Positions 280 to 41,700 of a stretch of 46,299 bases of DNA are shown here, one piece after another. Made by a program: the position numbers and the translations under genes. Under the pieces are notes generated by a model, which was given only the letters and a program-made list of their open reading frames with translations, was not told where the DNA came from and made no database searches. The stretch is from a virus. Position 1 is the first letter of the stretch. Each line of letters starts with the position of its first letter. The DNA lies in the UHGV virus genome UHGV-0173986; one strand, 5' to 3'.

Positions 280-1407
280 TCATAAGGCCACAGTTGTCCA
301 CCCCTTCCCTCGATCATCATGGTACCTATCCGTTTGTTGTTGAGTTTTATGTCCAAGTAAATCTTTCGTGTTTATGCCCTGGGCTTTATATAACCGCTCG
401 GAAAGCGATCTTTGTTCATGGAAAGTTGCCGGTGTACCTTGTCCCCAGTCAATATCTGCACTGTCTCTTGCCTTGCTGAAATTCATGGTCAGTGTTCTGG
501 GTTTCACCTGTGCTCCTCGCTCAGCCTGTGAGGTGGTTCTAAAGAAATGAACCAAATAAGGGCTTACTGCATAATCCCGGCAACGACTGATTACATCTCG
601 GAGGCTCCAGTTGATTGCGTTGCAACGCAGAGCTAATGGTATAGCGATTTTGCTTCCGGTTTTCTCTTGCTCAACGTGTAGATGATCGTCCCAGATGTCC
701 GAGAATTTCATACGGGATATATCACCTAGTCGCTGTCCTGTTACTATGGCTAAAAGCATGGCGTTCCCCATGTATTTGTGATTTTCATCTGCTATATCAA
801 AAATCTTTTGCCATTCCTCCAGAGTGAGGCGCTGGCGAGTGATTTTTCTACGAGGTTGTTTAGTTGCTAGTGCAGGGTTATAACCAGGAGGTACTTCACC
901 CGCATGCTGAGCTTCTTTAAAAACATCTATTAGGACAGAGCGAATGACCTGAGCCATTCTGGGTTGTCCCTCCGCTAAATATTCATCAAGAATTTGCGCA
1001 ACATCTCGAACATTGACAGCGGATATTAATTTCATTCCTACCCGTTCCTTAAGCAGAGATACTGGTTTTGCTTTTTGTTTGATAGTGTTTTCTTTAATAT
1101 CTCCGGACTTTAATCTTTCCTGCTGAATCTTCCAGTAGCGCTCAAGCCAGGTGTTAGTTGATATTGCTTTTCCTGTGCTGGTGGAAATTCTGTCAGTGAT
1201 TGCCATTATCTGGCGGGTTTGTTGTTCCGCCAGTCTTTTATTTGCTTCAATAGCTATTGCCGAGGCCTCTGCTTCGTCTGTTCCTAGACTATGAAACTTA
1301 CCAGTTATCGGGTGCTTATAACGCCAGTATACTTTATTAACCTTTCTACTGAAGAGCGGGTATAAATTTGGAATTGATATGTTATTTTTACGTGGTCTGG
1401 CAGCCAT
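280..1407 (-). CDS. int: Phage tyrosine integrase (e14 IntE-like, icd-specific)
   Basis: 375-aa ORF with the C-terminal tyrosine recombinase catalytic region (...HLGHKTQQQTDRYHDD...). Adjacent to the icd 3' end and overlaps xis. Confidence 0.9.
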   Translation of the reverse strand: MAARPRKNNISIPNLYPLFSRKVNKVYWRYKHPITGKFHSLGTDEAEASAIAIEANKRLAEQQTRQIMAITDRISTSTGKAISTNTWLERYWKIQQERLKSGDIKENTIKQKAKPVSLLKERVGMKLISAVNVRDVAQILDEYLAEGQPRMAQVIRSVLIDVFKEAQHAGEVPPGYNPALATKQPRRKITRQRLTLEEWQKIFDIADENHKYMGNAMLLAIVTGQRLGDISRMKFSDIWDDHLHVEQEKTGSKIAIPLALRCNAINWSLRDVISRCRDYAVSPYLVHFFRTTSQAERGAQVKPRTLTMNFSKARDSADIDWGQGTPATFHEQRSLSERLYKAQGINTKDLLGHKTQQQTDRYHDDRGKGWTTVAL

Positions 1408-3798: not shown

Positions 3799-4203
3799 TT
3801 AGTCTTTTTCGAATGGAGGGGGGATTTTTCGCTTACTCAGGAACTCAGCCATAAACCGATCTAACTCTTCCAGTCGCGTTCTCGCTAGTTCAATAAATCT
3901 GTCCTGCTCCACTTCAGGAAGTTGATCAAATACTTCTAATAACTCTAATTGCTTCTGATTTAGTACTGTTTTGCTGGCTGTGACAGCCTGTAATGAAGAC
4001 TCTTCTTCATCCGTCATAAAGAACCAATACAGTGGTTTTCCAAGTGCTTGCGGGAATAACTCTAACTTTTCCTTTCGCGGGAAGTTACCTGTATTGCACC
4101 AGTTACTGACTGTCTGAGAGTTTACACCCACTCGCCGGCCTAACTCAGATTGAGATATACCAGCCTCATCAAGAGCTCTTAACAGCCGTTCTTCGAAGTT
4201 CAT
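3799..4203 (-). CDS. DicA-like (XRE-family HTH) prophage repressor
   Basis: MNFEERLLRALDEAGISQSELGRRVGVNSQTVSNWC... HTH, and the C-terminal ...LNQKQLELLEVFDQLPEVEQDRFIELARTRLEELDRF resembles Qin DicA (...LSPKELELLELFNALPESEQDTQLAEMRARV...). Divergent from a cro-like gene. Confidence 0.7.
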   Translation of the reverse strand: MNFEERLLRALDEAGISQSELGRRVGVNSQTVSNWCNTGNFPRKEKLELFPQALGKPLYWFFMTDEEESSLQAVTASKTVLNQKQLELLEVFDQLPEVEQDRFIELARTRLEELDRFMAEFLSKRKIPPPFEKD

Positions 4204-4236
4204 ATTCGCATCCAAATCAAACCAGTAACCAAGCAT

Positions 4237-4551: not shown

Positions 4552-5106
4552 ATGCAAACCATATCTTTCAAAAATCATACTTCTATGTTGGGTATGCAAC
4601 AGAAAACGGAAAATCAGTATTCACCACGGCGTCGGGACAGCGTTAAGTGCCGGACCATCTTTGCAGCAGTTCGTGAGTGGGAGGCAACCTTACCCGGGCG
4701 CGCGCAGGAGCACGTCGCACAGCTGGTGGCCGAACAGTGGGAGAAACAAGACGGTCGCGGCATCAGCGTTAATAAACAAAATCTGTACCGCTACCTGAAA
4801 AACGAATCTGGATCAGAGAAGTACACCAGTTACGTCATGCAGCTTTCAGGAGCGATCGCTGATGCAATGCCTATTGAGATTGCGCGCAAACACGGATTGA
4901 AACGTGGATTGACTGAAAGCGAGCTGGTGGCTCAAGCAATCAAAGAGTGTAGCGAAGCGCACCAGGCAAAATTGCTTGGCGCTCCGTTGCAAAAGTTAGA
5001 GCGTGAAATTCGGGAGGCAGCAATTGCACTTTTTAACATGCTTCCTGCAGATGCGGCGGGACCACTACTGGCGAGCATAAGCGCCGTAGCGCCACAGTTT
5101 TTTTAA
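4552..5106 (+). CDS. CII-position regulatory protein (YmfL-like, e14 family); function uncertain
   Basis: 184-aa ORF directly after cro, similar in size and position to e14 YmfL. No motif I could confirm. Confidence 0.4.
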   Translation: MQTISFKNHTSMLGMQQKTENQYSPRRRDSVKCRTIFAAVREWEATLPGRAQEHVAQLVAEQWEKQDGRGISVNKQNLYRYLKNESGSEKYTSYVMQLSGAIADAMPIEIARKHGLKRGLTESELVAQAIKECSEAHQAKLLGAPLQKLEREIREAAIALFNMLPADAAGPLLASISAVAPQFF

Positions 5107-5150: not shown

Positions 5151-6170
5151 ATGAGCATTGATGCAATGCGATGGGCCAAAAAAGTCAAGACAGGGAAGTC
5201 CTCTGCAAAAGCTGTTCTGACCTGGATGGCCGACATGTGCGGAGCTGATCTCTGTGCTTTTCCATCCATTCCTGCGCTGGCTGAAGCAACTGAGCTGGAT
5301 AAGAAAACGGTCCAGTCGAGCCTGCAGTATCTGGTTTCGATCGGGCTTATTGAAGATACAGGTGAACGGCGTGGAAAGACTAAACAAATCCCGGTTTACA
5401 GGCTTCTTGGTGTGGAAGAAAGCGTTGCCGAAATTGAACACACCCAAAAACGGGAACATTACCAAAAACGGGATCGTTTAAACACACCCGAAAACGGGGT
5501 TGTTACAGCAGAAAAGGCACCCGAAAAAGGGACTGTTTCCTGTACACAAAAAAAACAAACGATCCCGTTTTTTCCGTCAAACGATCCCAAAAACGGGATC
5601 CGGAATCTACCAGAGGAACCAAAAGATATAACCCCCACACATAGGGTTTTGGTCGGACCAGTTGTGCCTGACTATCCGAATCAACCGGGAATAGTTCCTG
5701 GTGAAACACAAGCATTCGGAAAATTTGCGATGTATTTCGGGTGGAAACCTTCCGAGGATTTTCCCCGACTGGCAACGATTTGGGGAATGCCATTAAGACC
5801 GGGGATAAATCTTGCTGCCGAGTTAAGCAGCTTCATCGCGTACTGGCAGGCTGAAGGCAGGGCGTTTCACCAGGTCCAGTGGGAGCAAAAACTAGCAAGA
5901 CATCTTAACCGTGCGGAAGTCCGCCAGAAAAAACCAGTGAATGGGGGTAACGATCATGTGGGAGTACGAGCAGAGCCAGCAGCATCCAGAGCTGTTCAAC
6001 AGATTCGAGCCGCCCGTGAGCAACGGTTGCGAGTTGCAGGAACAGACGGCCGTAGAAACGGCGTGGCGCCTATGGGAAGTGATGGGCGAAATCTTTTCGA
6101 ACCGATGGATCCTGAAGAACGGAGAGGAACCATCAGAGCTCTGGATCGCTCAGATTGGGTCGATGAGTGA
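5151..6170 (+). CDS. Replication initiator O-like protein (N-terminal HTH replication-protein domain plus C-terminal DnaT-like ssDNA-binding domain); contains the ori iterons
   Basis: The N-terminus [31 protein letters not shown]...[28 protein letters not shown] matches the phage replication-protein HTH. The C-terminal [63 protein letters not shown] matches the DnaT-like domain. The R/G-rich tail after about residue 260 may be out-of-frame read-through. Confidence 0.75.
5443..5603. repeat. Replication-origin iterons inside the O-like gene: five or more copies of CC(A/G)AAAA(C/A)GGG(A/G)(A/T)C plus one inverted copy
   Basis: cccaaaaacgggaac, accaaaaacgggatc, cccgaaaacggggtt, cccgaaaaagggact, inverted aaacgatcccgtttttt, cccaaaaacgggatc. 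This is analogous to ori-lambda lying within O. Confidence 0.7.
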
Positions 6171-6627
6171 AGCCCAGATTACGCTGGTTTGCCGGCAGTG
6201 CATGGAGCGTTGCGCCGCGGGCAGCACATGGCCGCCGGATCTCGCTGAGTTCGTTGCGCTGGTATCTGCCAGCGGTGCTAACCCATTCAGTCTGACATCC
6301 GATGCAGTGATGGCGGAGTACAAACGCTGGAGAAACGAGTCTTACCGATATTCGGGAAGCGACAAATACCCATGGAAACAGGATGTTCTGTATCACATTT
6401 GCATTGAGATGCGCAGAACTGGAGTTGAGAGGAACCTGACGGAGGGAGAGCTGAAAAAACTGGCAGAAAACTTACTCACGAAATGGACCAAACACCTAGC
6501 TAACGGGTTTTCGATTCCCCCGATTCGTCGGCAGTTGGCAGCACCGAGGCATCCAGCAGGGCCGACGCCAGCGCAGGTTCTGATGGAAGAGTACAAACGC
6601 CGCAAGGCGGCAGGTTTAACCAAGTAA
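5956..6627 (+). CDS. Lambda P-like replication protein (helicase loader); 5' end overlaps the O-like ORF by about 215 nt in another frame
   Basis: ...[83 protein letters not shown] aligns with lambda P ...LPSPGQFVAWCREEASVTAGLPNVSELVDMVYEYCRKRGLYPDAESYPWKSNAHYWLVTNLYQNMRANALTDAELRRKAADEL. Start at MWEYEQ has a GGGGTAA RBS. Confidence 0.6.
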
Positions 6628-7081: not shown

Positions 7082-7293
7082 TTATGCCTAAAATGGAATC
7101 AACAGCATCTGGTACGGGATGTCAAAGCTAAGTTCAAATATTCCGGGATGAGGCAAAGCTGAGATGTCCGCTGAGTGCCAGGAGCAGACATTAAGGAAAT
7201 TGTGATATTTTGAGTGATGACAAGCCGTTTCCACTCAATTTTTAATTCTCAACACGCCCACTGCTGCAACTCCAGAAAATGATAGATATAATG

Positions 7294-7552
7294 TTCACAC
7301 ATTTACTTTATTAATGCTTCTCGCTGAGCGTTGCCGCATAACGCTCGGTGGATAGGCATTGATGCGTTTCAAAGCTCTGCTAAACACTGCCTGTGAGGCA
7401 TAGCCGAGGCGGAGAGCGACTGTGTAAATTAAGTTCTTATCGTGAATAATTAAGTGGCCAGCGAGACGCATTCGTACTTCTCTTGCATAGCGTTGGACAC
7501 GCTGCTGAACGGAGTAATGGTTGTGACGGCCATTGCCACCTCAGTCGCGGCA
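7294..7552 (-). pseudogene. C-terminal remnant of an AraC/XylS-family regulator (HTH_18 half only)
   Basis: Minus-strand translation ...YAREVRMRLAGHLIIHDKNLIYTVALRLGYASQAVFSRALKRINAYPPSVMRQRSARSIN is the second AraC HTH. An upstream in-frame stop is present and no N-terminal domain. Embedded in AT-rich DNA. Confidence 0.5.
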
Positions 7553-8028
7553 CTGACCCCAAGAAGAAGTCATTTGTTGCGATGACAAGTGGCTTGGAAA
7601 ACTATATAGACGTGATGAGATCTCAATGGGTATTGCTCACAGCCTTGAAAGAGGAGGTCTTCTTCGAAAAAAAATCAATGGCCTAGTTTTGATTGATAGC
7701 TACGCCCTGATCAATAGGTTGGGCTTCGGTGAAGCCCGGAGTGATTTGTGCAATGGGTGTTTGCAGAAAATTGAGAATGCTTAGGCCGAATGACCAAAAA
7801 TCAGAAAGTCTTTTTGGGGGCGGGAGCGCCATCTTCTGTAAAGCTTGCGGTCCATATGATGGCATACTGGCTTGTGGCGCGACTCTTCTGTCACTAGGCA
7901 GCGTACTGTGTACTAAGCATTACGTCCAGACTCGTCTTAAGAAGATGGCACTCATTCCTCGAGGTCAAGAAGCGCGGAAAAAAGACGAAGCGATGCCAGG
8001 AGGACAATGGTCAGTGATGATCCAGTAG

Positions 8029-8295
8029 TCAGCTGGTTTGTATGCGATCATAATATTCGATGATTTGCAGCGCAACTGCAGCAATTTGCACAGCTTCTTC
8101 TCTGCTGGTACCGGCTGCTTTTCCCCCGAAACGGTCATGGAGAACGGCCTGATGAAACTCTCCCACTTCCTCCCCAAGGATAGCCCCCCAGATGAAAGGA
8201 TCCAGATTGCGGTCTGCTCCCCATTTTGCATCCTGCCGTTGCATTTCAGCTAACACATCTTTCAGTGCTTCGGTTTCTTGATGTTTATATTTCAT
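8029..8295 (-). CDS. MazG-like (all-alpha NTP pyrophosphohydrolase superfamily) small protein
   Basis: 88 aa. ...WGAILGEEVGEFHQAVLHD...REEAVQIAAVALQIIEY resembles the MazG EExGE and downstream acidic helix. Weak RBS. Confidence 0.4.
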   Translation of the reverse strand: MKYKHQETEALKDVLAEMQRQDAKWGADRNLDPFIWGAILGEEVGEFHQAVLHDRFGGKAAGTSREEAVQIAAVALQIIEYYDRIQTS

Positions 8296-8440
8296 GATTC
8301 CCGTTACGTACCCGTCATTTTATGCGCTATCTTAAACATTAAATCTATGCTGAGTCCATTGCGATGACGCATCGCATTTTGTGATTGAACGGTAAGTTTG
8401 CTATAAACGTAGCAATGACAAAAATTTAAAGTGGATAATC

Positions 8441-8767
8441 TTGTACATTACCTTTCAAAGCAAAAAGTTAAGAGCTCTTTGTGAGAGTATGCACAATGCG
8501 AATGAGAACCTTGGTGAGAAACTAGCATCCAAGCTACGCGCACGCCTTTCCGATATCACCGTGGCGGACAATATTTTAGCATTGCCCGTCGGTTCGCCGG
8601 AGGTATGCTTTGAGGAAGGGGAAGAGTGTATTACAATTACCCTTTTGGGCGATAAAAAAATGGGATTTGTTTGTGGGAATACGATTCAGCCAAAAAATCA
8701 AGACAATACGATTGACTGGTCCCAGGTCAGCCGGATACGGTTAGTGTTCATAGGTGATGTGAAATGA
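8441..8767 (+). CDS. HigB-like (killer-protein, RelE/ParE superfamily) toxin-like protein; TTG start
   Basis: (M)YITFQSKKLRALCES...KLASKLRARLSDITVADNILAL parallels the HigB N-terminus MIKSFKHKGLKLLFEK...VDRINDRLQAIDTATEIGEL. Its stop overlaps the next start (ATGA). Confidence 0.45.
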   Translation: MYITFQSKKLRALCESMHNANENLGEKLASKLRARLSDITVADNILALPVGSPEVCFEEGEECITITLLGDKKMGFVCGNTIQPKNQDNTIDWSQVSRIRLVFIGDVK

Positions 8768-9846
8768 TGGTAACGCAGGACTTCCAGCCTGACTGGGTAT
8801 CTCCACCCGGTGATACGATTATAGATCTGATGGATGAACACGGAATTTCTGATGAGGAGTTGAGTAAAAAAATAGGCTTGTCCCTTGATCGGGGTCAGCA
8901 ACTTCTTGAAGGGAAACTCCGACTGAATCCGTCCCTGGCCGACAAGCTTGAAGAGCTGTTCAGTGTGTCGACGGACTTCTGGATCAGGCGCGAAGATGCT
9001 TATCGCAGGCAAATAGAACATATCCAGAAAGTTAACAGCGACTGGCTGGAATCATTGCCCGTACGCGATATGATGGAGTTTGGCTGGATCCCGAAAACCA
9101 CAACGCGGGAAAGTAAATTCCGACACTGTCTGTCGTTCTTCGGTATACACTCCGTGAGTGAGTTTTATCACAAAATACATTCTGATGCTCCACTGGTCGC
9201 CTTTCGTAAATCATTGAATCTGACGACTGAGCCTGTCGCTGATCTGGTATGGCTGACCCGTGCAGAACAGTTGAGTGCAAAACAGGTCTGCGCAGAATGG
9301 AATAAAAAGGCGCTGCAGGCGCTTTTGCCGGAGCTTCGTAGAGCAACAAACGAACCTGATATGGGAATTTTTATCCCTCACATTCGGCGGCTTCTCGCGA
9401 CTGCCGGGGTTTCGCTGATCGTGTTGCCAACGCCCAAGGGATGCCGGGCCAGTGGTGCCACCTGCTTTTTCACTCCAGACCGCGCCACGCTGGTCATGAG
9501 TTTCCGCTATCTTACCGATGACCATTTCTGGTTTACGCTGTTTCATGAGATTGGGCATCTCATTCTGCACGAGGCAGTGCAGGTTCGTGCGGAAGGTAAA
9601 GAAGGCCTGTCGACAGAAGAGGAAAAAGAAGCCGATACATTTGCTGTAGACGTCCTCATTCCTGAGGAATACAGGCAGCAACTCAGGCGCTATGGTGTTC
9701 GGCACTGGAGGGACATCGTCCGCACGGCCCGTAAAATAGGCGTATCAAAAGGGATTGTTCTCGGGTACTTACAACATGAGGGCAACATTCCTTTTTCTCA
9801 CCTTAACCGGCTTAAGGTGAGATACAGTAAAGAAGACATTGTATAA
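8764..9846 (+). CDS. Fusion protein: N-terminal HigA/XRE-type HTH plus C-terminal ImmA/IrrE-family zinc metallopeptidase (DUF955/COG2856, HEIGH motif)
   Basis: N-terminus ...WVSPPGDTIIDLMDEHGISDEELSKKIGLSLDRGQQLLEGKLRLNPSLADKLEELFSVSTDFW (HigA-like HTH). C-terminus ...FWFTLFHEIGHLILHE...EEKEADTFAVDVLIPEE (HExxH plus downstream E). Translationally coupled to the upstream HigB-like gene. Confidence 0.7.
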   Translation: MMVTQDFQPDWVSPPGDTIIDLMDEHGISDEELSKKIGLSLDRGQQLLEGKLRLNPSLADKLEELFSVSTDFWIRREDAYRRQIEHIQKVNSDWLESLPVRDMMEFGWIPKTTTRESKFRHCLSFFGIHSVSEFYHKIHSDAPLVAFRKSLNLTTEPVADLVWLTRAEQLSAKQVCAEWNKKALQALLPELRRATNEPDMGIFIPHIRRLLATAGVSLIVLPTPKGCRASGATCFFTPDRATLVMSFRYLTDDHFWFTLFHEIGHLILHEAVQVRAEGKEGLSTEEEKEADTFAVDVLIPEEYRQQLRRYGVRHWRDIVRTARKIGVSKGIVLGYLQHEGNIPFSHLNRLKVRYSKEDIV

Positions 9847-9848
9847 GT

Positions 9849-10793
9849 TCAGCCGCCAAAATAGACGTAGCGATCAGGTGACTTCTGCCAGTTACACAGC
9901 GCGTCTTCAATGACCTGCATCCTGAGATATGGTGCAGGGATAATTTCGGCAAGTTCAGCCAGTTTATCATTCAGAGTCTCTAGCCTATCACCTGCGCTCC
10001 GGCTGTTACTAAACAGCAGCCGACTCCCCTGAAGAGGGCCAGTAGCTCCCTTCAAAAAAGCATGCCCCGGTTCTGCCTCGATGAGTCCGGTTTTTCTTAG
10101 CATAGTCAGGTAATCAAATCGGGCGGTTCGTCCGAATGAAACCACCGCATTCAGGCCTGAATACAGCAATTCGAAAAGAGTAGCAGGTGTTGCCGCGAGG
10201 CTCCTTGCTTCTGCAAACCGGGCCTCGTGGCTGTATGTTGCACCAATAAATCCGAGATATGAACGAAAAACGACAGGTATAGAACGACGTGAATGATATT
10301 TTTTCGTTTCATATTTGCGGTGGTTACCATACTGTCTTAGACTGCTATGTAGGGTCAGCTCATCAGAAACGCTGGCAAACCACTGTTCAAATGCATCAAA
10401 GTCATCAGTTATGGCATCCCATGTCCACGTCTGGGTACCTAGTCCACTGTAAATATCGCGGCACAAAACCCAGCCTGTTTTACTACTCCGGCCAAAATGC
10501 GTGGCCAGAAAAACCAGCCAGCAGGCTTCGTCATAGTTGTTTTCACGCAGATGCAGACACGCAGCACGAAGAGGATCAAATAAATCTGAGTTTGGCTCTT
10601 TTCTTAGCGGATTCATATAATCGGTTCGTGATGTCAGCGTTGACATATAGCGAATGCGGCGAATACTGTCAATAATCTGAAAGGCTAATACATTATAGTG
10701 AGCCGCAGAACTCAGTCCGTTTAGGATATGTTTATCGCGACTGAAGTTTTGAAGAGCGGCGACCAACTGGCTTGCCTGACTGTGTCTGTTCAT
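9849..10793 (-). CDS. Hypothetical 314-aa protein, translationally coupled partner of the TS-fold enzyme (function unknown)
   Basis: Start overlaps the stop of the upstream TS-like gene (TAATG). No P-loop or other motif I can name. Confidence 0.6.
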   Translation of the reverse strand: MNRHSQASQLVAALQNFSRDKHILNGLSSAAHYNVLAFQIIDSIRRIRYMSTLTSRTDYMNPLRKEPNSDLFDPLRAACLHLRENNYDEACWLVFLATHFGRSSKTGWVLCRDIYSGLGTQTWTWDAITDDFDAFEQWFASVSDELTLHSSLRQYGNHRKYETKKYHSRRSIPVVFRSYLGFIGATYSHEARFAEARSLAATPATLFELLYSGLNAVVSFGRTARFDYLTMLRKTGLIEAEPGHAFLKGATGPLQGSRLLFSNSRSAGDRLETLNDKLAELAEIIPAPYLRMQVIEDALCNWQKSPDRYVYFGG

Positions 10794-12028
10794 TATATTT
10801 TCCCGTCAAAAATAAATCGGTATTCCTGATTATTCAACGCAGTCAGCTCCTGACGGGCCAGCTCGTTGTGTGCCGACGTATGTGAACGTAACAAAAAATG
10901 GACTTTTATCACGCGCAGAAGATCCTTCCAGTAGTCACTCAAGGGCGTAGTATCGATATTAAATTCCTTGTTTTCCCGCAGAGCCTTTTCTGCTTCAAGG
11001 ATGACTGTAATGTCCTTTAAGGATTGAATTTCGGGCATATCACCCATCACCGGCAAGGTACTCATAAAGCCTTCTTGTCGTAGCGCTTTTACTTGTTCAA
11101 AATGTTCTTCATAGATATGGAGGCTTGAGACGAAGTGATGATAATACCCCAGTTTGCATCCGGTGAGGCGGGCGACCAGTTCCTGCAACATCGTGAAGGA
11201 GAACACATCATGGGGTAAGCCCATAAAGGCATCGTTAGAGCGCATACAGACAAAAAGATGCAATGCATCTTGTCTGACAATAAATTGCAACGATATAGTG
11301 CACGGAATATCGGCATATTCTGTCTGCTCTGGATTACCCGTCACCAGATCTGAGGCATCAAACAGTTGTATCAGCGCGCGTCGAGTAGTTCTTTTCTCCT
11401 GCAGCAGACTGATGACATTTTCCAACTGATTATACAGCCCGTGCATACTAAATAATCTCGGACCGTATCCCCCGTGTATTCTGCCGTCGGATTCAGCGTA
11501 TTTTACGTAGCGAGGTATGAAGTGCCGGATGAAATCGAGATCGTTCTGGGCTGAGAGGTACCATAGCAATTCCCCCAGACAGCTGACAATTTTACCGCGG
11601 GATTCTGTCCTACTTATTCTGCGGCGAGGATCGGTGAGAATCAGGTAGGCTCCCAGAATTTCAATATTTGCTCCTTTAGTGGGAGTATTCCAGAGTCCGC
11701 CAGTAAGGATCGCCTGATGGACATCGTTTAACAGATCGTCAACACATTCAGCCGTCACCAGAAGAGTCATAAACTGCCTGTTATATAATGAATGTAACAA
11801 ATCATTACCACTAGTGCGATAAATAGTCAACATGCCATTAGTAAAAACAGGGCTATAACCGCTATGACACATATCATCAGGTGCGAGGTTTGACACCCAT
11901 GTTTCCTCCATTCCCTCTGGAAGCAAAAAATGTTCACGTAGAATAAGAACTGAGGGACGCAGACGCATGCAGGCCACTCGCCAGGGTATTCCTCCAAATG
12001 AACTGGCCGGTTTCCTAATATCAGCCAT
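10793..12028 (-). CDS. Thymidylate-synthase-fold enzyme with a ~130-aa N-terminal extension (dUMP/dCMP methylase or hydroxymethylase-like)
   Basis: Motifs align with ThyA: KIVSCLGELLWYLSAQND (vs HELLWFLQGDTN), RRALIQLFDASDL (vs RRIIVSAWN), and the catalytic-Cys region IPCTISLQFIVRQDALHLFVCMRSNDAFMGLPHDVFSFTMLQELVARLTGCKLGYYHHFVSSLHIY (vs [66 protein letters not shown]). Confidence 0.75.
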   Translation of the reverse strand: MADIRKPASSFGGIPWRVACMRLRPSVLILREHFLLPEGMEETWVSNLAPDDMCHSGYSPVFTNGMLTIYRTSGNDLLHSLYNRQFMTLLVTAECVDDLLNDVHQAILTGGLWNTPTKGANIEILGAYLILTDPRRRISRTESRGKIVSCLGELLWYLSAQNDLDFIRHFIPRYVKYAESDGRIHGGYGPRLFSMHGLYNQLENVISLLQEKRTTRRALIQLFDASDLVTGNPEQTEYADIPCTISLQFIVRQDALHLFVCMRSNDAFMGLPHDVFSFTMLQELVARLTGCKLGYYHHFVSSLHIYEEHFEQVKALRQEGFMSTLPVMGDMPEIQSLKDITVILEAEKALRENKEFNIDTTPLSDYWKDLLRVIKVHFLLRSHTSAHNELARQELTALNNQEYRFIFDGKI

Positions 12029-12356
12029 TAAAATAGCGCTGTAAACTTCATTACCAAATGCGGCGCGCCTGTAAGGGCCTGACTACAGGTTTAAACACTG
12101 TGCAACCACAAGTCCTAGGTCCGCTCTTCGCTCATAGCGGACCTCCAAATCAGTTAGTTTGTCCGCTCTGTGCCAAGAGCGGAATCTGGAACGCCAGAGG
12201 TAGCAACGTTTCTTATCAAAGGTGTTGATCACCACAAAAATGACTGTATCCCTGTGATAGCGGATTTCGTCCTTTGTGGAGAAAAGATCAATCTAAACAT
12301 GAGCATGGGTTAGCGAAAAGTGGCATTAAACGCTTGAACATTTCACCTAACAAGTA

Positions 12357-12376: not shown

Positions 12377-12395
12377 CTTGCGTGAGGAGCTAGTT

Positions 12396-12629
12396 ATGAA
12401 AGTGGAAATCACAATTGATCGCCAAAAAAAATTGCCGGATGGCGCTGTGCCTGCTCTGGAGAAGGAGCTACTGCGGCGATTGGATCAAAACTTTAATAAC
12501 TGCAGTCTTGTGATTCGTCGGGCCAGCTCCGATGGTTTGACCGTGCTTGGTGGAATGGACGGAGATAAAAAACGTATTGAGGAAATCCTGCAGGACACCT
12601 GGGAAAGCGCTGATGACTGGTTTTGTTAA
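12396..12629 (+). CDS. dinI: DinI-family protein (DNA-damage-inducible protein I homologue)
   Basis: MKVEITIDRQKKLPDGAVPALEKELLRRL...LTVLGGMDGDKKRIEEILQDTWESADDWF closely matches E. coli DinI (MRIEVTIAKTSPLPAGAIDALAGELSRRI...ISEILQETWESADDWF). GAGGAG RBS. Confidence 0.85.
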   Translation: MKVEITIDRQKKLPDGAVPALEKELLRRLDQNFNNCSLVIRRASSDGLTVLGGMDGDKKRIEEILQDTWESADDWFC

Positions 12630-12673: not shown

Positions 12674-12931
12674 GTGAGTAAAAAACAAGAAATGCCGAAC
12701 ACCGGCTATGCAATTATCAGATGCGACGATGGGGTGATCGTTGCTCGTCTGACATCCTTTCCTGTGTGTGAGCGCGCTCTGATGTACCGACGCGGCGATA
12801 CTGTTTCGTTTATGCCTTTGCAGCCGGATGAGATCGTGGGGACTCTCTCTCTATTTTCACAGATGATTGAAAAGGCTAAGTCTGGCGTTGGTTACCAGGT
12901 TCCCCCTGGTTCTGTTACAATCCCGTCATAG
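12674..12931 (+). CDS. Hypothetical protein (about 85 aa)
   Basis: ORF in an operon with dinI. GTG start with GAGGA RBS (alternative ATG at 12692). No recognisable family. Confidence 0.35.
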   Translation: MSKKQEMPNTGYAIIRCDDGVIVARLTSFPVCERALMYRRGDTVSFMPLQPDEIVGTLSLFSQMIEKAKSGVGYQVPPGSVTIPS

Positions 12932-12971
12932 GCCTGAACAACCTATACCTGCTGCGTCGCGGAGAGAAACC

Positions 12972-13364
12972 ATGACGCAAACCCCCGAAGTATCAAAATC
13001 CCATCAGACTGGTGCTCCTTCATCGAGCGCCGGTTTGCTTTCGTCTTCAAAACTAACTTTTCGCCAGCAGGAAGTTTTCGATCTGCTGGTGGCCTACATC
13101 AATCAGCATGGCTACCCACCTACGCTATCTGAGTTGGCCGATATGCTCGGCGTTAGCTCGTCTAATGCTGTCCTGTTGCATCTGCGTGCGTTAGAGAGAA
13201 AAAATTTTATAAAACTCTCTCGCCGTGTCTCAAGAGGAATTTCCATCGTCGGGCGAAAGGAGCCTATGCTCGCCGTGCAGCTGCTGCAGGAAATGATCGC
13301 TGAAGAACCCGGCGCGCGTGAAAGAGCGATTGAGTTTTTGCGACTGTTCGGTGATCAGCCATGA
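12972..13364 (+). CDS. LexA N-terminal DNA-binding-domain protein without the S24 peptidase domain (non-cleavable LexA paralogue)
   Basis: [66 protein letters not shown] aligns with LexA [66 protein letters not shown]. It is 130 aa and lacks the Ala-Gly cleavage site and Ser/Lys dyad region. GGAGAGA RBS. Confidence 0.7.
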   Translation: [130 protein letters not shown]

Positions 13365-35779: not shown

Positions 35780-38700
35780 ATGGCAAATAACATCATTAAA
35801 GGGCGCAAGGGTGGCGGCTCAAAGCAGCGTACACCGACGGAACAGCCGGATGATTTACAGTCCGTTGCGAAAGCCAAAATTCTGCTCGCATTAGGTGAGG
35901 GTGAATTTGCAGGTGGTTTAACCGGTAAAGATATTTATCTTGATGGCACCCCGCTTGAAAATGCTGATGGTTCGCAAAACTTCAGTGGCGTGTCCTGGGA
36001 ATTTCGCCCCGGCACGCAGGCTCAGACTTATATTCAGGGTATTCCCGGTACTGAAAATGAAATCAGTGTGGGATTGGAAGTTTCCAGCAAGACAGCCTGG
36101 ACCCATACCTTTACTAATACCCAGCTTTCTGCCGTTCGTTTTCGTCTGAAATGGCCGTCCCTGATGAAACAGGAAGATGACGGCGACGTGGTGGGCAATA
36201 CCGTCAGGTATGCGATTGACCTGCAGACCGACGGCGGCGCCTGGCAGACGGTGCTGGAAACCGCTGTCTCGGGTAAAACCACCACCGGTTATGAGCGGAG
36301 CCATCGTATTGATCTGCCCCAGGCCGGCAGTACTTGGACGCTACGTCTGCGTAAAATCTCTCCGGATGCAAACAGTGTCAAAACTGGCGACGTGATGACG
36401 CTGCAGAGCTATACCGAAGTGATTGACGCGAAGCTGCGTTATCCCAACACCGCACTGCTTTATATCGAGTTCGACTCCAGCCAGTTTAATGGCTCCATTC
36501 CGCAAATTTCCTGTGAGCCGCGTGGGCGCGTGATCCGGGTGCCGGATAACTACAATCCGGAAACCCGCGAATATACCGGCGTCTGGACCGGCGGGTTTAA
36601 ATGGGCCTGGACGGATAACCCGGCCTGGATCTATTACGACATTGTTATCGCTGACCGTTTTGGTCTCGGCAATCGTCTGAGCAGCGCCAATATTTCGAAA
36701 TGGACGTTGTACCAGATTGCACAGTACTGCGATCAGCTGGTTCCTGACGGGCGCGGTGGTGACGGCATGGAGCCGCGCTATACCTGTAACGTCTATGTCC
36801 AGGAACGCAACGATGCTTACACCGTGCTGCGAGATTTTGCCGCCATCTTCCGGGGCATGACCTGCTGGAACGGTGAGCAGATTGTTGTGCTGGCTGATAT
36901 GCCGCGTGATGTCGATTTTACTTATACGCGCGCCAATATTGTCGGCAAACCCCGTTATTCGAGCAGCAGCAGCCAGGTTCGGTACACCAACGCCCTGGTT
37001 TCCTGGTCTGATCCGGATAATGCTTATGCTGATGCGATGGAGCCTGCGTTTATCCCTGAACTGGTTTCCCGCTACAGTTTTAACCAGCTCGAAATGACCG
37101 CGATTGGCTGTACGCGCCAGAGCGAAGCCCACCGTAAGGGACTGTGGGGCATACTGACCAACAATAAGGACCGCATGGTCGAAATTGATGTGGGGCTGGA
37201 CGGTCGCATTCCTCAACCCGGTTATATCATTGCCCTGGCGGATGAGTTGCTGGCCGGACGGGTCAACGGCGGGCGAATCAGCGCGGTGAATGGCCGGGTG
37301 ATTACGCTGGATCGTGATGTGGATGCCAAACCTGGCGACCGCCTCCAGCTAAACCTGCCATCAGGGATCTCACAGAGCCGGACCATTCAGGCTGTTAATG
37401 GACGCCGGCAGATTACGGTCACAACGGCGTACAGTGAGACGCCGGAACGGGAATGCGTCTGGGCCATTGAATCCGATGACCTCTTCCTGCAGCAGTACCG
37501 GGTTACAGGGGTAAAAGAGAACAACGATGCCACCCTCACGATCACCGGCGTGGCACATGACCCGGATAAATTCGCCCGCATCGATACCGGCGCTATTATC
37601 GACCAACGCCCGGTTAGCGTATTGCCGGCGGGCAACCAGTCACCTCCTGACGATATTGTCATCACATCCCGCTCGGTCGTGAATCAGGGGATCAGCGTCG
37701 AAACGATGCAGGTTAACTGGTCAGCGGTCAGCGGTGCTATTGCCTACGAGGCGCAGTGGCGCCGTAACGACGGGAACTGGATTAATGTGCCGCGCAGCTC
37801 GACCACCTCGTTTGAGGTCAGCGGCATCTATGCCGGTCGTTACCTGGTTCGCGTCCGCGCGATCAATGCGGCGGAGATTTCGAGCGGGTGGGCGTATTCC
37901 GAAGAGAAAACCCTGACCGGCAAGGTCGGCGAGCCGCTGGCACCGCTGGCGCTGGCAACCCGTTCGCTGGTTCATGGGGTCCAGGTTAGCTGGGAGTTCC
38001 CGACCGGCTCCGGGGATACGCTGCGCACGGAACTGCAGTACAGCAAAAATCAGGACGGCAGTGCGCCGATGCCGTTATCAGACGTGGCCTATCCGGGGAA
38101 AAGCTATCAGCAGATGGGCCTCAGTATGGGCGCAGAATTCTGGTATCGGGCGCGCCTTGTTGATCGTCTGGGCAATGAAAGCCCGTGGACCGGCTGGGTC
38201 CAGGGGATGGCCAGCGATAACTTTGATGACTACTACGAAAACCTGACTGACGCGATCAAGGATACGGCTGCCTGGGAGGAAACGCAGCGTACCATTAGCG
38301 AAACGCAGGAAGGTATCCGCAATACGCAGCAGGAACTGGAGCAGACCGCTGAAGAGCTGCGTCAGGAAGCCGCAGATCAGGCGAAGCAGGTCAGCCAGAA
38401 TATTGATGCATCGGCGAAAAGCATCACTGCTGATGTGAATCAGCAGATAGCAGTTTTGAGCAAGTCGCTTGCCGACGGCGATGCCGCATTGAATGCGCAG
38501 ATTAAAACTGCCGAGAATGGCCTGAAGCAGTCGTTGTCTCAGGTCAACACCACGTTAACCAATGCGGTTAAGCAGGAAACTGCGGATCGTATCGCAGATA
38601 TTAACGCGAAGGCGGCACAGGCTGCTGATGAACTGCTGGCGGCAACGCAGGGGATTGAGGCGAGTATCGAGAGCCTGACTCAGGTAATGAAGAGTGCCGA

Positions 38701-41700
38701 TGAAAATCTGGCGCGGGAAATGTCCAGCCTCGCTGCCGGCGCCAATATCCAGTTCGATTCGCAGGTTATCTGGCATTTCAACAGTCAGACGACCGAGGGC
38801 TGGACCGGCAGCGCCGGCGTACCGGGTGTGTCCCGGGATGGCTGGTTACGCCCTGCGGACAGCGCCACCGATCCGTACATTACCTCTCCCGGCGGTCTGG
38901 CTGTCGATGGTGCAGCGTACCGCTTCATCATGCTGCGCTTTCGTAAAACCGGCAAACCAGTCTGGGCGGGTGAGATCCGTTGGGTGTCTGCCGGCGAAAA
39001 CTTTAATAACACGAAGCGATACATTGTTGCTGAGCCGGAATATGCCGATGGGGTGGCAACCCTGACGGTGCGTGATATTCCGTGGACAGGGAACATTGAT
39101 CGTATTCGCCTGGACCTGACGAACCAGCAGGATGCCAGCAACTTTATCGAATTCGACTGGATCGCCGTTGGCCGGCCAGCACCCGGCGCCAGTACGGCGG
39201 CTCTGCAGGATGTGCGCAGTACGCTGAGTAACGCGCTGACCTCCGAAGCACAGGCACGCAGCACGCTGGCGGCGCAGATGCGTGGCTCCTATGATGGCAG
39301 CGATCTGGAGAAAGTCACCTCCGGGCTGCTATACCAGGAAAAAACGGCGCGCGTTACCGCCATCCAGGCGGAAGTTAAGGCCAGAGAGTCCCTTCAGACG
39401 CAGTTTAACGACAACAAAGCTGCTGTTTCTGGTGAACTGAGTTCTCTGACGACAGAGCAGCGCGCGCAGGCGAGCCGTATCGGTGGTCTGGAAACCAGCC
39501 TCGGGAAAAAAGCCGATGCGACCGCGCTGACGTCCCTGACGCAGAAAGTTGAGCAACAGGGCGCCACGCTGACATCGCAGGGCGCCGCGTTAACATCACT
39601 CACTAACCGGGTGGGCCAGACGGAAACGGGCCTGGCTGGTACGAATGAGGCGCTGAGCGGGCTGCAGTCTGTTGTTACCCGTCAGGGCGACAGGATAACC
39701 AGCCAGGGTCAGTCCATCACAAAACTGACGAGCGATTTGGGCACGACAAATTCCGCGCTGGTGAAGAAAGCCGAAGCGGCTGCGGTCACTGCCTTAACGC
39801 AGCAGGTGGAGCAAAACGGGCGGGATATTCGCAGCAATACTGACAGTATCACCCGCCTGTCGAATCAGCTGGTCAATGGCCAGCCGAATAGCTGGTCCCG
39901 TCGGATCTATCCTGTGCAGCTGGCTAACGCCGTGACAGTCCCGTCATTCAGCGATATTCGCGCCGTGGCGCCAGTGGTCGTGGATGAGGTGGCCGACGCG
40001 ACCAGACTGGACTTTACGTCCGCCGGGAGCTATCTGATCGCGCTGTATTCCTGCCAGGTGAAAGTGGCGGCCGATACCACCATCACAATGACGCCCGGTA
40101 ACAGGGTTTTTGATGATACCGGTGCTGTATTTGTAAATGGCGTTCAGGTTGCCTGGGGAAACGCCAGCTGGACTACCGTCAGTTTTGATCTGAAAGCCGG
40201 CTGGAACACAGTTGAGTTTCTGGTGAATCAGTGGGCTGGCCAGGCGTATATCAACCTGGGACTGAAGCTGTCAGACAAGGTTGCTGAGATGTACTCCGGT
40301 CTCGGTGTTTCCGCGCTGGCAAACGCAGCCGGCGTACTCAGCTCGAATGTCAGCCAGATTGGCAACCATGTGGTCAGCAATTCGCAGAGCATCACCCAGC
40401 TCCGGAATGCGCTGACGCAGACAGACGCGAATGTGGCCAGCAAAGCGGATCAGACGGCGATGAACTCCCTAACCGGACGAGTGGAGAAGACGGAGTCCGG
40501 TCTGACGGCGGCGAACAGCAACATTACGTCGCTCAGCAGCTCTCTGAGCCAGCAATCCAAACGCGGCGCTAATCTGCTTCCTGATGGCACTTTTGAAAGT
40601 TACGCGGTTGGTCACAATCTGGCGAATAACCGTGCCATCGTGACCACTGACGACTCGCATGGCGGCAATAAATGCATTCGTGTGACGCGTCCGAATGACT
40701 ACAATGCCAATGCAACTGACAACACTGACACCCACATTTTCAGCGGATTCCAGGTTCGCGATAACGCAGTCTTCTATATGGAATGCTGGGTTAAGCTGGA
40801 TTCCAGGAGTACCGCTATGGCCGGGAACGTGCAGATTTCCGTCGGCTTATCGCTCCAGTATCAGGACAACTCCTGGCAGTGGCCGGCAGTTACCAAAGCG
40901 GCAAAGGATCTCTCTTCAACTCAATGGACGAAGGTTTCTGGTTACCTGAAATCAACGAAGAGCGGTATTAAGCAGGCAATGGTCAGGATTTCTATTCCTA
41001 ACGTTAGCAGCGTTAAGGCGGGTAACTCATTCCTCATTGATGACCTGGTCATTACCGAAGTGACTGATGCCTACAATGCGCAAAGTACAGCAGATGCTAA
41101 CGCTAATGCGATTTCAACACTGAACTCGACCGTATCCCAACAGGGCGGCCAGATCAACAGTCAGGGTAACAGCATCACTAAACTGATAAATGACCTGGCG
41201 ACGACTAATAATAACGTCAGCAATAAAGCAGACGCTAATGCTCTGACGGCACTGACCAACCGTGTTACCCAGACCGAAAAAGACATTAACTCAACGAGTT
41301 CTTCTGTCACGAATCTGAACAACAAGGTTGATGCAATTTCTGTCGGGGGTACAAACCTGATCAAGAACTCCGGCGATATGACCGGCTGGTCGAACGTTGT
41401 CAGCGATACGTATCGTGGTAACGCGGTAATTAGCGCAACTGTAAAAGCCGGCGCCGGTTACAGGGATTTGCGGGAAATCACGCTTGAGTCGCCGGTCGAT
41501 GCAGGGGAGTACGTTTACAGCTTCTATGCGAAAGGCGGCGTTGCTGGCCAGACGATGACGGCGTTCTTCTACAATCCGAACACCACAACGTCTATCGAGA
41601 CCAGCCAGGGTGCGAAAGGTAACAACACTGATGGTCGTGCGCAGTTCACGCTGACCACTTCATGGGCCCGTTATTGGGTTAAGTGGAAACAGACACCTAC

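Follow-up and report, generated by a model that had tools for sequence, protein, structure and literature searches.

The virus genome UHGV-0173986, whose 46,299 nucleotides (one strand, 5′ to 3′) make up the window analysed here, is a lambdoid prophage. Two open reading frames (ORFs) lie on its minus strand, at 9849-10793 (314 aa) and 10793-12028 (411 aa as the longest ORF), between the O/P-like replication genes and the DinI-like, LexA-like, DUF968, lysis and late genes, in the orientation opposite to the latter. A prediction made earlier from the letters of the sequence (the original prediction) had described these ORFs as a two-gene cassette of a thymidylate synthase (TS)-fold enzyme and a partner, antisense to the lytic genes and inside the accessory island that separates replication from late functions. 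Position and orientation were correctly read. So was the translational coupling: at the junction of the TS-like gene and the partner gene (ATATAATGAAC), the last A of the upstream TAA stop is the first A of the downstream ATG (TAATG), and both ORFs are real. The boundaries, however, had been drawn too narrowly, as the conserved unit comprises four genes, sometimes five, and spans 8441-11770. Besides the TS-superfamily enzyme and its partner, a clade 3 aGPT-Pplase (hereafter Pplase), it codes for a small protein of 108 aa and for a fusion of a HigA/Xre-type helix-turn-helix (HTH) domain with an ImmA/IrrE (M78) metallopeptidase (HTH-M78 protein). On balance, we favour the interpretation that this segment holds a complete copy of a four-gene cassette that is widespread and horizontally mobile, carried here as cargo by a lambdoid prophage, and that the cassette acts as an anti-phage system by diverting or derivatising deoxycytidine nucleotides.

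The linkage of the four genes was surveyed in 80 loci drawn from 434 Genome Taxonomy Database (GTDB) species genomes that encode a relative. The sampled taxa include Enterobacterales, Vibrio, Alteromonadales, many Alphaproteobacteria, Myxococcota, Planctomycetota, Acidobacteriota, Chloroflexota, Verrucomicrobiota, Bacteroidota and Saccharibacteria. The TS-Pplase pair, whose conservation the original prediction had left to such a survey, co-occurs essentially always. The TS-like, Pplase and HTH-M78 genes are found together in 73 of the 80 loci; contig ends truncate six of the other seven, and the last may have no TS-like gene. The HTH-M78 gene converges on the Pplase gene in 77/78 loci, with a median stop-to-stop gap of 1 nt and overlapping 3′ ends in 33 loci, and the peptidase gene is directly preceded by an ORF of ~105-110 aa in 72/81 loci. 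The same architecture was present in all IMG/VR contigs encoding a relative (22/22). In the window, the stops of the HTH-M78 and Pplase genes (9846 and 9849, respectively) are 2 nt apart. These convergent ends (9844-9851) leave no room for terminators, so the transcripts of the two operons must overlap as antisense, which may be a built-in regulatory feature. A search of the two promoter regions for a shared operator or inverted repeat yielded only short, unconvincing repeats.

Table 1. Features of the cassette and of the surrounding prophage (window coordinates).
Feature	Position	Strand	Basis or remark
TS-superfamily enzyme, 325 aa from Met87 of the 411-aa ORF	10793-11770	minus	predicted folate-dependent dCMP 5-hydroxymethylase, MilA / T4 gp42 type
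aGPT-Pplase clade 3 / amino-acid:DNA-transferase-like enzyme, 314 aa	9849-10793	minus	Pfam; TAATG coupling to TS-like gene
HigA/Xre-type HTH + ImmA/IrrE (M78) metallopeptidase fusion, 360 aa	8764-9846	plus	Pfam, PADLOC
Small protein, 108 aa, TTG start	8441-8767	plus	ATGA 4-nt overlap with HTH-M78 gene; PD-λ-2A-like (HigB-like component) position
Probable promoter and 5′ untranslated region of TS-Pplase operon	11771-11833	minus	σ70-like site, AGG, homology limit
MazG-like protein, 88 aa	8029-8295	minus	divergent from 108-aa gene; lineage-specific neighbour, maybe accessory, outside core
Lambda-type integrase	280-1407		
CI-like repressor	3799-4236		
YdaT-toxin-like gene	4552-5106		downstream of cI
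O/P-like lambdoid replication genes	5151-6627		
DinI-like gene	12378-12629		
165-aa protein, LexA-type DNA-binding domain only	12867-13364		after DinI-like gene; followed by DUF968/HNH protein, holin, lysozyme and late genes

The TS-like protein matches Pfam PF00303 (E = 3e-28 to 5e-28) and carries all the ThyA-type catalytic motifs that had been listed for it (GELLWYLS, TTRRAL, DIPCT, MRSNDAFMGLP and LHIY). That it is not an ordinary ThyA, as the original prediction held, is borne out by its score against the best NCBIfam ThyA equivalog model (87 bits compared to a cut-off of 327 bits; it falls far below every ThyA equivalog cut-off) and by an Asp in place of the Asn that specifies dUMP. Its best match in the PDB is the Streptomyces enzyme MilA, the CMP 5-hydroxymethylase that acts in mildiomycin biosynthesis (5b6d/5jnh, E = 4e-43, compared to 3.5e-21 for the best ThyA), in an alignment that takes in the C-terminal helical extension of MilA, a feature that the two proteins have in common.

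Residues of the TS-like enzyme are numbered here on the 411-aa ORF, and their conservation was counted over 75 cassette orthologues. C243 corresponds to the ThyA nucleophile (75/75), D274 to N177 (75/75), an Asp or Glu at 240 to L143 (68/75), D266 to D169 (75/75), S264 to S167 (75/75) and R216 to R126′ (72/75); H304 and Y306 are conserved as well. In this superfamily, Asp at ThyA position 177 goes with cytosine substrates and Asn with uracil, while Ser167 and Arg126′ select 2′-deoxyribose, and Ala and Lys ribose (PMC5175136). An acidic residue at L143 accompanies a hydroxymethyl rather than a methyl product, and D169N marks the flavin-dependent 5-hydroxy-dCMP synthases (PMC13326640). The TS-like enzyme has the full set of residues of a dCMP hydroxymethylase (Asp at 177, an acidic residue at 143, Asp at 169, Ser167 with Arg126), and the Asn177 and Leu143 of ThyA are replaced in all 75 and in 68 of the orthologues, respectively. 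From this signature we predict a folate-dependent dCMP 5-hydroxymethylase of the T4 gp42 type. The earlier proposal of a dUMP or dCMP hydroxymethylase thus keeps its reaction type, with dCMP as the predicted substrate, and loses dUMP. A 5-hydroxy-dCMP synthase was also considered and rejected, since the Asp169 equivalent is kept in every orthologue. With T4 gp42 and MilA the enzyme shares the Asp at N177, the acidic residue at L143, the retained D169 and the conserved Cys nucleophile, His and Tyr. It differs from MilA by its deoxyribose-type Ser/Arg pair, which is Ala/Lys in MilA, and the cassette differs from the T4 pathway by its lack of a deoxynucleoside monophosphate (dNMP) kinase and of a glucosyltransferase.

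The N-terminal extension of ~130 aa that had been ascribed to this enzyme turned out to be an artefact of the longest ORF. Homology to distant orthologues (tblastn) begins at residues 83-93 of the 411-aa ORF, the start called by the NCBI Prokaryotic Genome Annotation Pipeline (PGAP) in E. coli orthologues is the equivalent of Met87 (325-326 aa), and gene callers give lengths of 313-337 aa across E. coli, Vibrio, Salmonella, Providencia and Bradyrhizobium orthologues. Upstream of the Met87 column, the frame stays open for a median of 13 codons in 75 relatives. Against the closest relatives (~93% DNA identity), codons 1-86 show 6-7 synonymous and 21 non-synonymous changes together with two in-frame stops or gaps, compared to 28-34 synonymous, 15-17 non-synonymous changes and no stop in codons 87-411. 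On the minus strand, a σ70-like site (TTGACT-18-AATGAT, 11830-11801) lies upstream of the ATG at 11770, which is preceded by an AGG Shine-Dalgarno sequence at 7 nt; the ATG at 12028 lacks a Shine-Dalgarno sequence. Homology with a 78%-identity variant of the cassette found in E. coli stops at 11833, and 11771-11833 is the part of the supposed extension that is still conserved in this variant. Together, the homology limits, gene calls, codon changes, promoter and AGG place the gene at 10793-11770, starting at Met87 and coding for 325 aa. As MilA residue 22 aligns with residue 112 of the long ORF, what precedes the Pfam match is simply the normal N-terminal part of the fold.

The 314-aa partner, for which the original prediction had found no motif it could place, belongs over its full length to a named family and has a structural relative that has been solved. 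It matches PF18746 (aGPT-Pplase3, 1.3e-89) over residues 34-313 and profile positions 4-278 of 279, and also PF18724 (ADDT, the amino-acid:DNA transferase family, 1.7e-56). We found 4,121 homologues, nearly all of 310-317 aa. NCBIfam had no match, and neither sequence nor profile searches of the PDB retrieved one; only a fold search succeeded. With an AlphaFold2 model of mean predicted local distance difference test (pLDDT) score 94.4, that search returned as the closest solved structure the 5-PmdU glycinyltransferase of phage PaMx11 (gp46), an amino-acid:DNA transferase (AADT) with which the Pplase has in common a fold resembling that of helix-hairpin-helix (HhH) glycosylases. Seven residues near the C-terminus (E296, D297, C300, N301, W302, Q303 and K304; E-D-x-x-C-N-W-Q-K) are invariant in 102/102 orthologues, and hhalign places E296, D297 and C300 on E243, T244 and C247 of gp46. 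In gp46, Cys247 makes a covalent C6 adduct while Glu243 and Thr244 hold a metal that contacts thymine O4 (PMC11472151), and in the homologous enzymes M6 gp51 and ViI gp247 the Cys and the neighbouring Glu are essential (PMC8989533). The change from Thr in gp46 to Asp in the Pplase parallels the Asn-to-Asp change in the TS partner and may serve the recognition of the cytosine N4 amino group. The family is basic (median pI 9.2), and the segment G-R-[TL]-[AG]-[KR]-F-D at residues 221-227 looks like an HhH motif.

The large subunit encoded by the convergent operon is related to a component of a known defence system. The 360-aa protein matches Pfam HTH_3 (2e-05) and Peptidase_M78 (2.9e-10), as well as the PADLOC model PD-Lambda-2_B (PDLC03982, 8e-29; protein residues 15-341, model positions 60-378 of 402), and the two His and the Glu of its HExxH motif (HEIGH, 261-265) are invariant in 97/97 orthologues. 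PD-λ-2 is a validated three-component abortive-infection system (Vassallo et al. 2022, PMC9519451), in which B, a HigA-HTH-peptidase fusion, is toxic alone and is neutralised by the HigB-like A, while C is needed for defence (PMC9519451). The two systems are alike in having a small upstream protein, an Xre/HigA-HTH-peptidase fusion encoded by an overlapping gene, a large subunit homologous to B and, on the reading favoured here, a further component required for defence. They differ in the nature of the latter: the P4-antitoxin-like component C, which has no counterpart next to the pair either in the window or in related loci, is replaced by the convergent two-enzyme operon. They differ as well in the small protein, which has no significant match to PD-Lambda-2_A or HigB. 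The 108-aa coding sequence is the one annotated by PGAP in E. coli ES7, and residues F5, R11, C14, D38 and W93 are invariant in the family. PDB profile searches and per-member Pfam and PADLOC scans of this family were weak or negative for HigB: one of 16 members matches Pfam HigB-like_toxin weakly (0.003), and alignment with P. vulgaris HigB is weak as well (hhalign E = 0.017).

The only recurrent extra gene in the 80 loci lies between the TS-like and Pplase genes and codes for a protein with a uracil-DNA glycosylase (UDG) fold, which has 2,448 homologues and belongs to no Pfam family. ORF calling found it as a clean ORF of 265-336 aa in 23 of the 75 loci in which both genes were seen, and tblastn detected it, whole or partial, in 31/80 loci; it is absent from the window. 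The MazG-like gene on the other side of the cassette has an orthologue named "MazG-like family protein" in RefSeq, and its product matches PHROG 24212 (7.8e-36) and no Pfam family. It adjoins the cassette in Enterobacterales loci only (10 searched loci, namely 8 genome loci plus E. coli records, and two viral contigs), and was for this reason rejected as a core component. No dNMP kinase or 5-hydroxymethyl-deoxyuridine (5-hmdU) DNA kinase domain was detected in the cassette genes or in 30 distinct scanned ORFs of the window.

The cassette is mobile cargo, as its description as an occupant of a defence and cargo hotspot implied, and its neighbourhoods agree with that description. A 4.9-kb block (7257-12117) containing an AraC-type HTH fragment (7295-7471), the MazG-like gene and the four cassette genes is also present, with 92% identity and without a lambdoid prophage around it, in tRNA-Leu integrative islands of E. 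coli, beside a type I restriction-modification (R-M) system, a TIR fragment and an AAA ATPase, indicating that it is passed as a unit from one type of mobile element to another. The block has a GC content of 0.47, compared to 0.52 in the rest of the prophage. Just outside its right end (12117), two tandem 23-nt hairpin-forming repeats, GTCCGCTCTTCGCTCATAGCGGAC and GTCCGCTCTGTGCCAAGAGCGGA, occupy 12119-12183 and could be a terminator pair or a boundary element resembling repetitive extragenic palindromes (REP). Distribution is patchy: the cassette is present in 237 of 5,426 complete E. coli genomes, in most of them as the 78%-identity variant, which is flanked by a type I R-M system on one side and a dGTPase-family gene on the other. 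Other neighbours include Shedu in Bradyrhizobium, an integrase and a type I R-M system in Providencia, and HipA and SMC-like genes in V. cholerae. Relatives occur in 434 bacterial species genomes compared to 22 of 2.9 million IMG/VR contigs, and none was found in 50,697 deposited phage genomes (megablast, tblastn) or in PHROGs.

The original prediction knew of no described system with this arrangement, a view that needs correcting. The cassette has already been flagged by others as a predicted defence system, and its proteins belong to known families. RefSeq names both proteins of the TS-Pplase pair, with TS-like orthologues annotated as "thymidylate synthase". DefensePredictor lists WP_000174035.1 as a "Predicted novel defense gene" with a log-odds score of 7.6 (Science 2026, PMC13092281); this protein is encoded by the TS gene in the E. 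coli variant of the cassette (78% identity). The legends of Fig. 6F and Fig. S12A of the same publication mention a predicted, unvalidated aGPT-Pplase system with a homologue of a known defence gene and an HTH; in these legends and in the entry for WP_000174035.1, the system and the gene stand as predictions, with no phage assay, mechanism or substrate analysis (PMC13092281). CMoRE (PMC12923530) was examined as a possible instance of the same system and rejected, as it is an unrelated GIY-YIG nuclease. New in this analysis are the strictness of the four-gene arrangement, a signature that is uniformly of the cytosine type, the E-D-x-x-C motif, the way the two operons overlap tail to tail, and the variant with a UDG-fold gene.

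The match to PD-Lambda-2_B, the defence and mobile-element neighbours, the patchy distribution, the DefensePredictor listing and the precedent of DS-4 (see below) lead us to propose a defence role. The analysis itself established which genes are present, their families and folds, the conservation of catalytic residues, the strict linkage of the four genes and their genomic surroundings. The substrates, the order of the reactions and the coupling of the two operons that we infer are as follows. Of the two tail-to-tail operons, the first would be a switch, in which the HigB-positioned small protein and the HigA-HTH-M78 fusion would form a sensor and regulator or a toxin-antitoxin-like device, and the second would be the effector. 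The TS-superfamily enzyme would convert dCMP and methylene-tetrahydrofolate into 5-hydroxymethyl-dCMP, and the Pplase would then carry out Cys-dependent C5/C6 chemistry on the 5-substituted pyrimidine. Phage AADTs attack C6 of a 5-substituted pyrimidine, displace the group carried by the C5-methyl carbon and bring in a nucleophile. Since no kinase of the 5-hmdU type is encoded, the transferase would have to act directly on the hydroxymethyl group; it would then expel water rather than phosphate, which is the chemical reverse of the last step of the hydroxymethylase and plausible. Upon infection, the effector would use up deoxycytidine nucleotides by turning them into 5-hydroxymethyl-dC and a further product derivatised at C5, whether in the nucleotide pool or, after base flipping, in DNA, and phage DNA synthesis would be starved or poisoned.

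Both roles that had been offered for the pair in the original prediction, a modification module and nucleotide-pool immunity, survive as live hypotheses, and the site of action has hints on either side. Action on DNA is hinted at by the closest structural relative of the Pplase, which flips its base from double-stranded DNA, by the basic character of the family, by the HhH-like segment and by the UDG-fold gene of the five-gene variant. Action on the nucleotide pool is hinted at by the lack of any nucleotide or DNA kinase, by the adjacent MazG-like gene in Enterobacterales and by QNG1, which has the same fold and acts on mononucleotides. The adjacency of genes for a MazG-like NTP pyrophosphatase and a predicted hydroxymethylase mirrors the logic of T4 gp56 and gp42.

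Several observations weigh against this reading of the cassette as a defence system. The defence role is drawn from genomic context, one homologous component and a machine-learning score, and the substrate dCMP is predicted by residue analogy. PADLOC has no model for, and gives no match to, the TS-like protein or the Pplase, and we found no experimental work in the literature on clade 3 aGPT-Pplases or on the cassette. The alignment of the Cys motif to gp46 is weak by itself (hhalign probability 4%, E = 0.009). The 108-aa protein of the window matches neither PADLOC nor Pfam and is not detectably a homologue of HigB or PD-λ-2A. The convergent linkage demonstrates co-inheritance, not a regulatory mechanism. 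Finally, the lack of a kinase in the cassette and in the scanned ORFs of the window leaves unexplained both the route of 5-hydroxymethyl-dCMP into DNA and the use of a hydroxyl as leaving group.

Comparison with characterised systems helps to place the cassette. Phage thymidine hypermodification combines a dUMP hydroxymethylase, a 5-hmdU DNA kinase and an aGPT-Pplase of clade 1 or 2 acting as AADT, as exemplified by PaMx11 gp51 and gp46, M6 gp51 and ViI gp247 (PMC8989533; PMC11472151). The cassette likewise pairs a TS-superfamily hydroxymethylase with an aGPT-Pplase-family enzyme, and its Pplase has the Glu-x-x-x-Cys catalytic motif of the phage AADTs with the same spacing. In contrast to the phage pathway, its TS-like enzyme carries the cytosine-type Asp (75/75) where PaMx11 gp51 has the uracil-type Asn, its Pplase reads E-D-x-x-C where phage AADTs have E-T-x-x-C, and it lacks a DNA kinase, a pyridoxal-phosphate (PLP) enzyme, a radical S-adenosylmethionine (SAM) enzyme and an oxidoreductase. 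Clade 3 is, moreover, chromosomal or island-borne, has essentially no members in phage genomes and comes with an HTH-M78 switch linked to it. DS-4 is a validated DefensePredictor system made of a TS, a dNMP kinase, a 5-hmdU DNA kinase, a TIR protein and NMAD2 (PMC13092281). Like the cassette, it is bacterial and joins a TS-superfamily enzyme with enzymes of the thymidine-hypermodification type, and its validation means that bacteria do use such chemistry for defence. Unlike the cassette TS with its Asp, the DS-4 TS has the uracil-type Asn, and DS-4 relies on both kinases, TIR and NMAD proteins and has no aGPT-Pplase, whereas the cassette has none of those partners. Nucleotide-depletion defences include dCTP deaminase and dGTPase systems. 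With these and with the Brig1 glycosylase, the cassette would have in common the proposed outcome, deoxycytidine nucleotides denied or DNA bases damaged, and the E. coli variant adjoins a dGTPase-family gene; the enzymes and the chemistry are unrelated.

The same families of enzymes admit other explanations. The cassette could serve the prophage or island itself by replacing or decorating cytosine in its own or in host DNA, so as to escape restriction. Virulent phages use both enzyme families for this purpose, the closest structural relative of the Pplase works on double-stranded DNA, and some loci add a UDG-fold partner. We nevertheless consider self-modification unlikely: the cassette encodes no nucleotide kinase, DNA kinase or polymerase, the family is missing from the 50,697 deposited phage genomes and from PHROGs and is rare in IMG/VR compared to its spread in bacterial genomes, and it is constantly linked to a toxin-antitoxin-like HTH-M78 switch and neighboured by restriction and defence genes.

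A type IV-like attack on modified bases appears similarly improbable. Here the AADT-like enzyme, with or without the UDG-fold protein, would recognise the 5-hydroxymethyl-pyrimidines of T-even or SPO1-like phages and form adducts on them, cross-link them or excise them, with the TS-like enzyme as an auxiliary or priming factor. The DNA-glycosylase-like folds of the Pplase and of the UDG-fold protein and the invariant nucleophilic Cys of the former would suit such a role, and modified-cytosine defences have precedents in the Brig1 glycosylase (PMC11078745) and CMoRE (PMC12923530). It leaves unexplained, however, why a catalytically intact predicted dCMP hydroxymethylase, conserved in 75/75 loci, is coupled to the Pplase, and the cassette also occurs in phyla with no known phages containing 5-hydroxymethylcytosine or 5-hydroxymethyluracil.

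We also regard as unlikely that the enzymes belong to a small-molecule pathway of the MilA/MilB type, in which their product would be a modified base or nucleotide in free form, serving as toxin, signal or antibiotic-like compound, with the HTH-M78/HigB-like pair as an addiction or regulatory module and with no direct antiviral role. Among homologues of solved structure MilA is the closest to the TS-like protein, and the pathways to mildiomycin and bacimethrin each combine a hydroxymethylase with an N-glycosidase, yet the Ser/Arg pair is of the deoxyribose type, where MilA and BcmA have the ribose-type Ala/Lys, further biosynthetic genes do not recur around the cassette, and the conserved Glu...Cys motif indicates transferase chemistry over glycosidic hydrolysis. 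Lastly, an ordinary auxiliary thymidylate synthase (thyA-like) beside unrelated genes, as the RefSeq label and the PF00303 match might suggest, is effectively refuted by the score far short of the equivalog cut-off, the Asp for the uracil-specifying Asn and the acidic residue at the L143 position, a match to MilA far stronger than to any ThyA, and the near-absolute four-gene linkage.

If the cassette is a defence system, as we favour, a bolder and more speculative form of that proposal can be considered, to which we attach only tentative belief. It holds that a bacterial immune system has turned phage-style hypermodification chemistry on phages, by means of what would be the first cytosine-directed, kinase-independent AADT. 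The hydroxymethyl group of 5-hydroxymethyl-dC would give way to a bulky C5 adduct or to a covalent link between enzyme and DNA, formed on phage DNA as it replicates or on its precursors, followed in the five-gene variant by excision of the modified base by the UDG-fold protein, all under control of a PD-λ-2-type protease switch. The clade 3 aGPT-Pplases are a large uncharacterised family (4,121 homologues, at least 434 bacterial species) that is tied, essentially without exception, to a cytosine-type hydroxymethylase and a PD-λ-2-like switch, and that keeps the catalytic Glu and Cys with no kinase partner. Confirmation of a defence role would establish C5 derivatisation or sequestration of deoxycytidine as a new effector logic, would extend the AADT reaction from thymine to cytosine, which is of interest for tools to label 5-hydroxymethylcytosine, and would reveal what HTH-peptidase modules of the PD-λ-2 type control.

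Further features of the prophage were noted around and away from the cassette. The DinI-like, LexA-domain and DUF968/HNH genes form an SOS-linked regulatory set that adjoins it. An Rrf2-family regulator at 2191-2562, between the integrase and the cI region, is, like the YdaT-toxin-like gene, an extra accessory gene of the early region. The tail region contains a single ORF of 2,938 aa (35780-44596), unusually long for a lambdoid host-specificity or tail-fibre protein.

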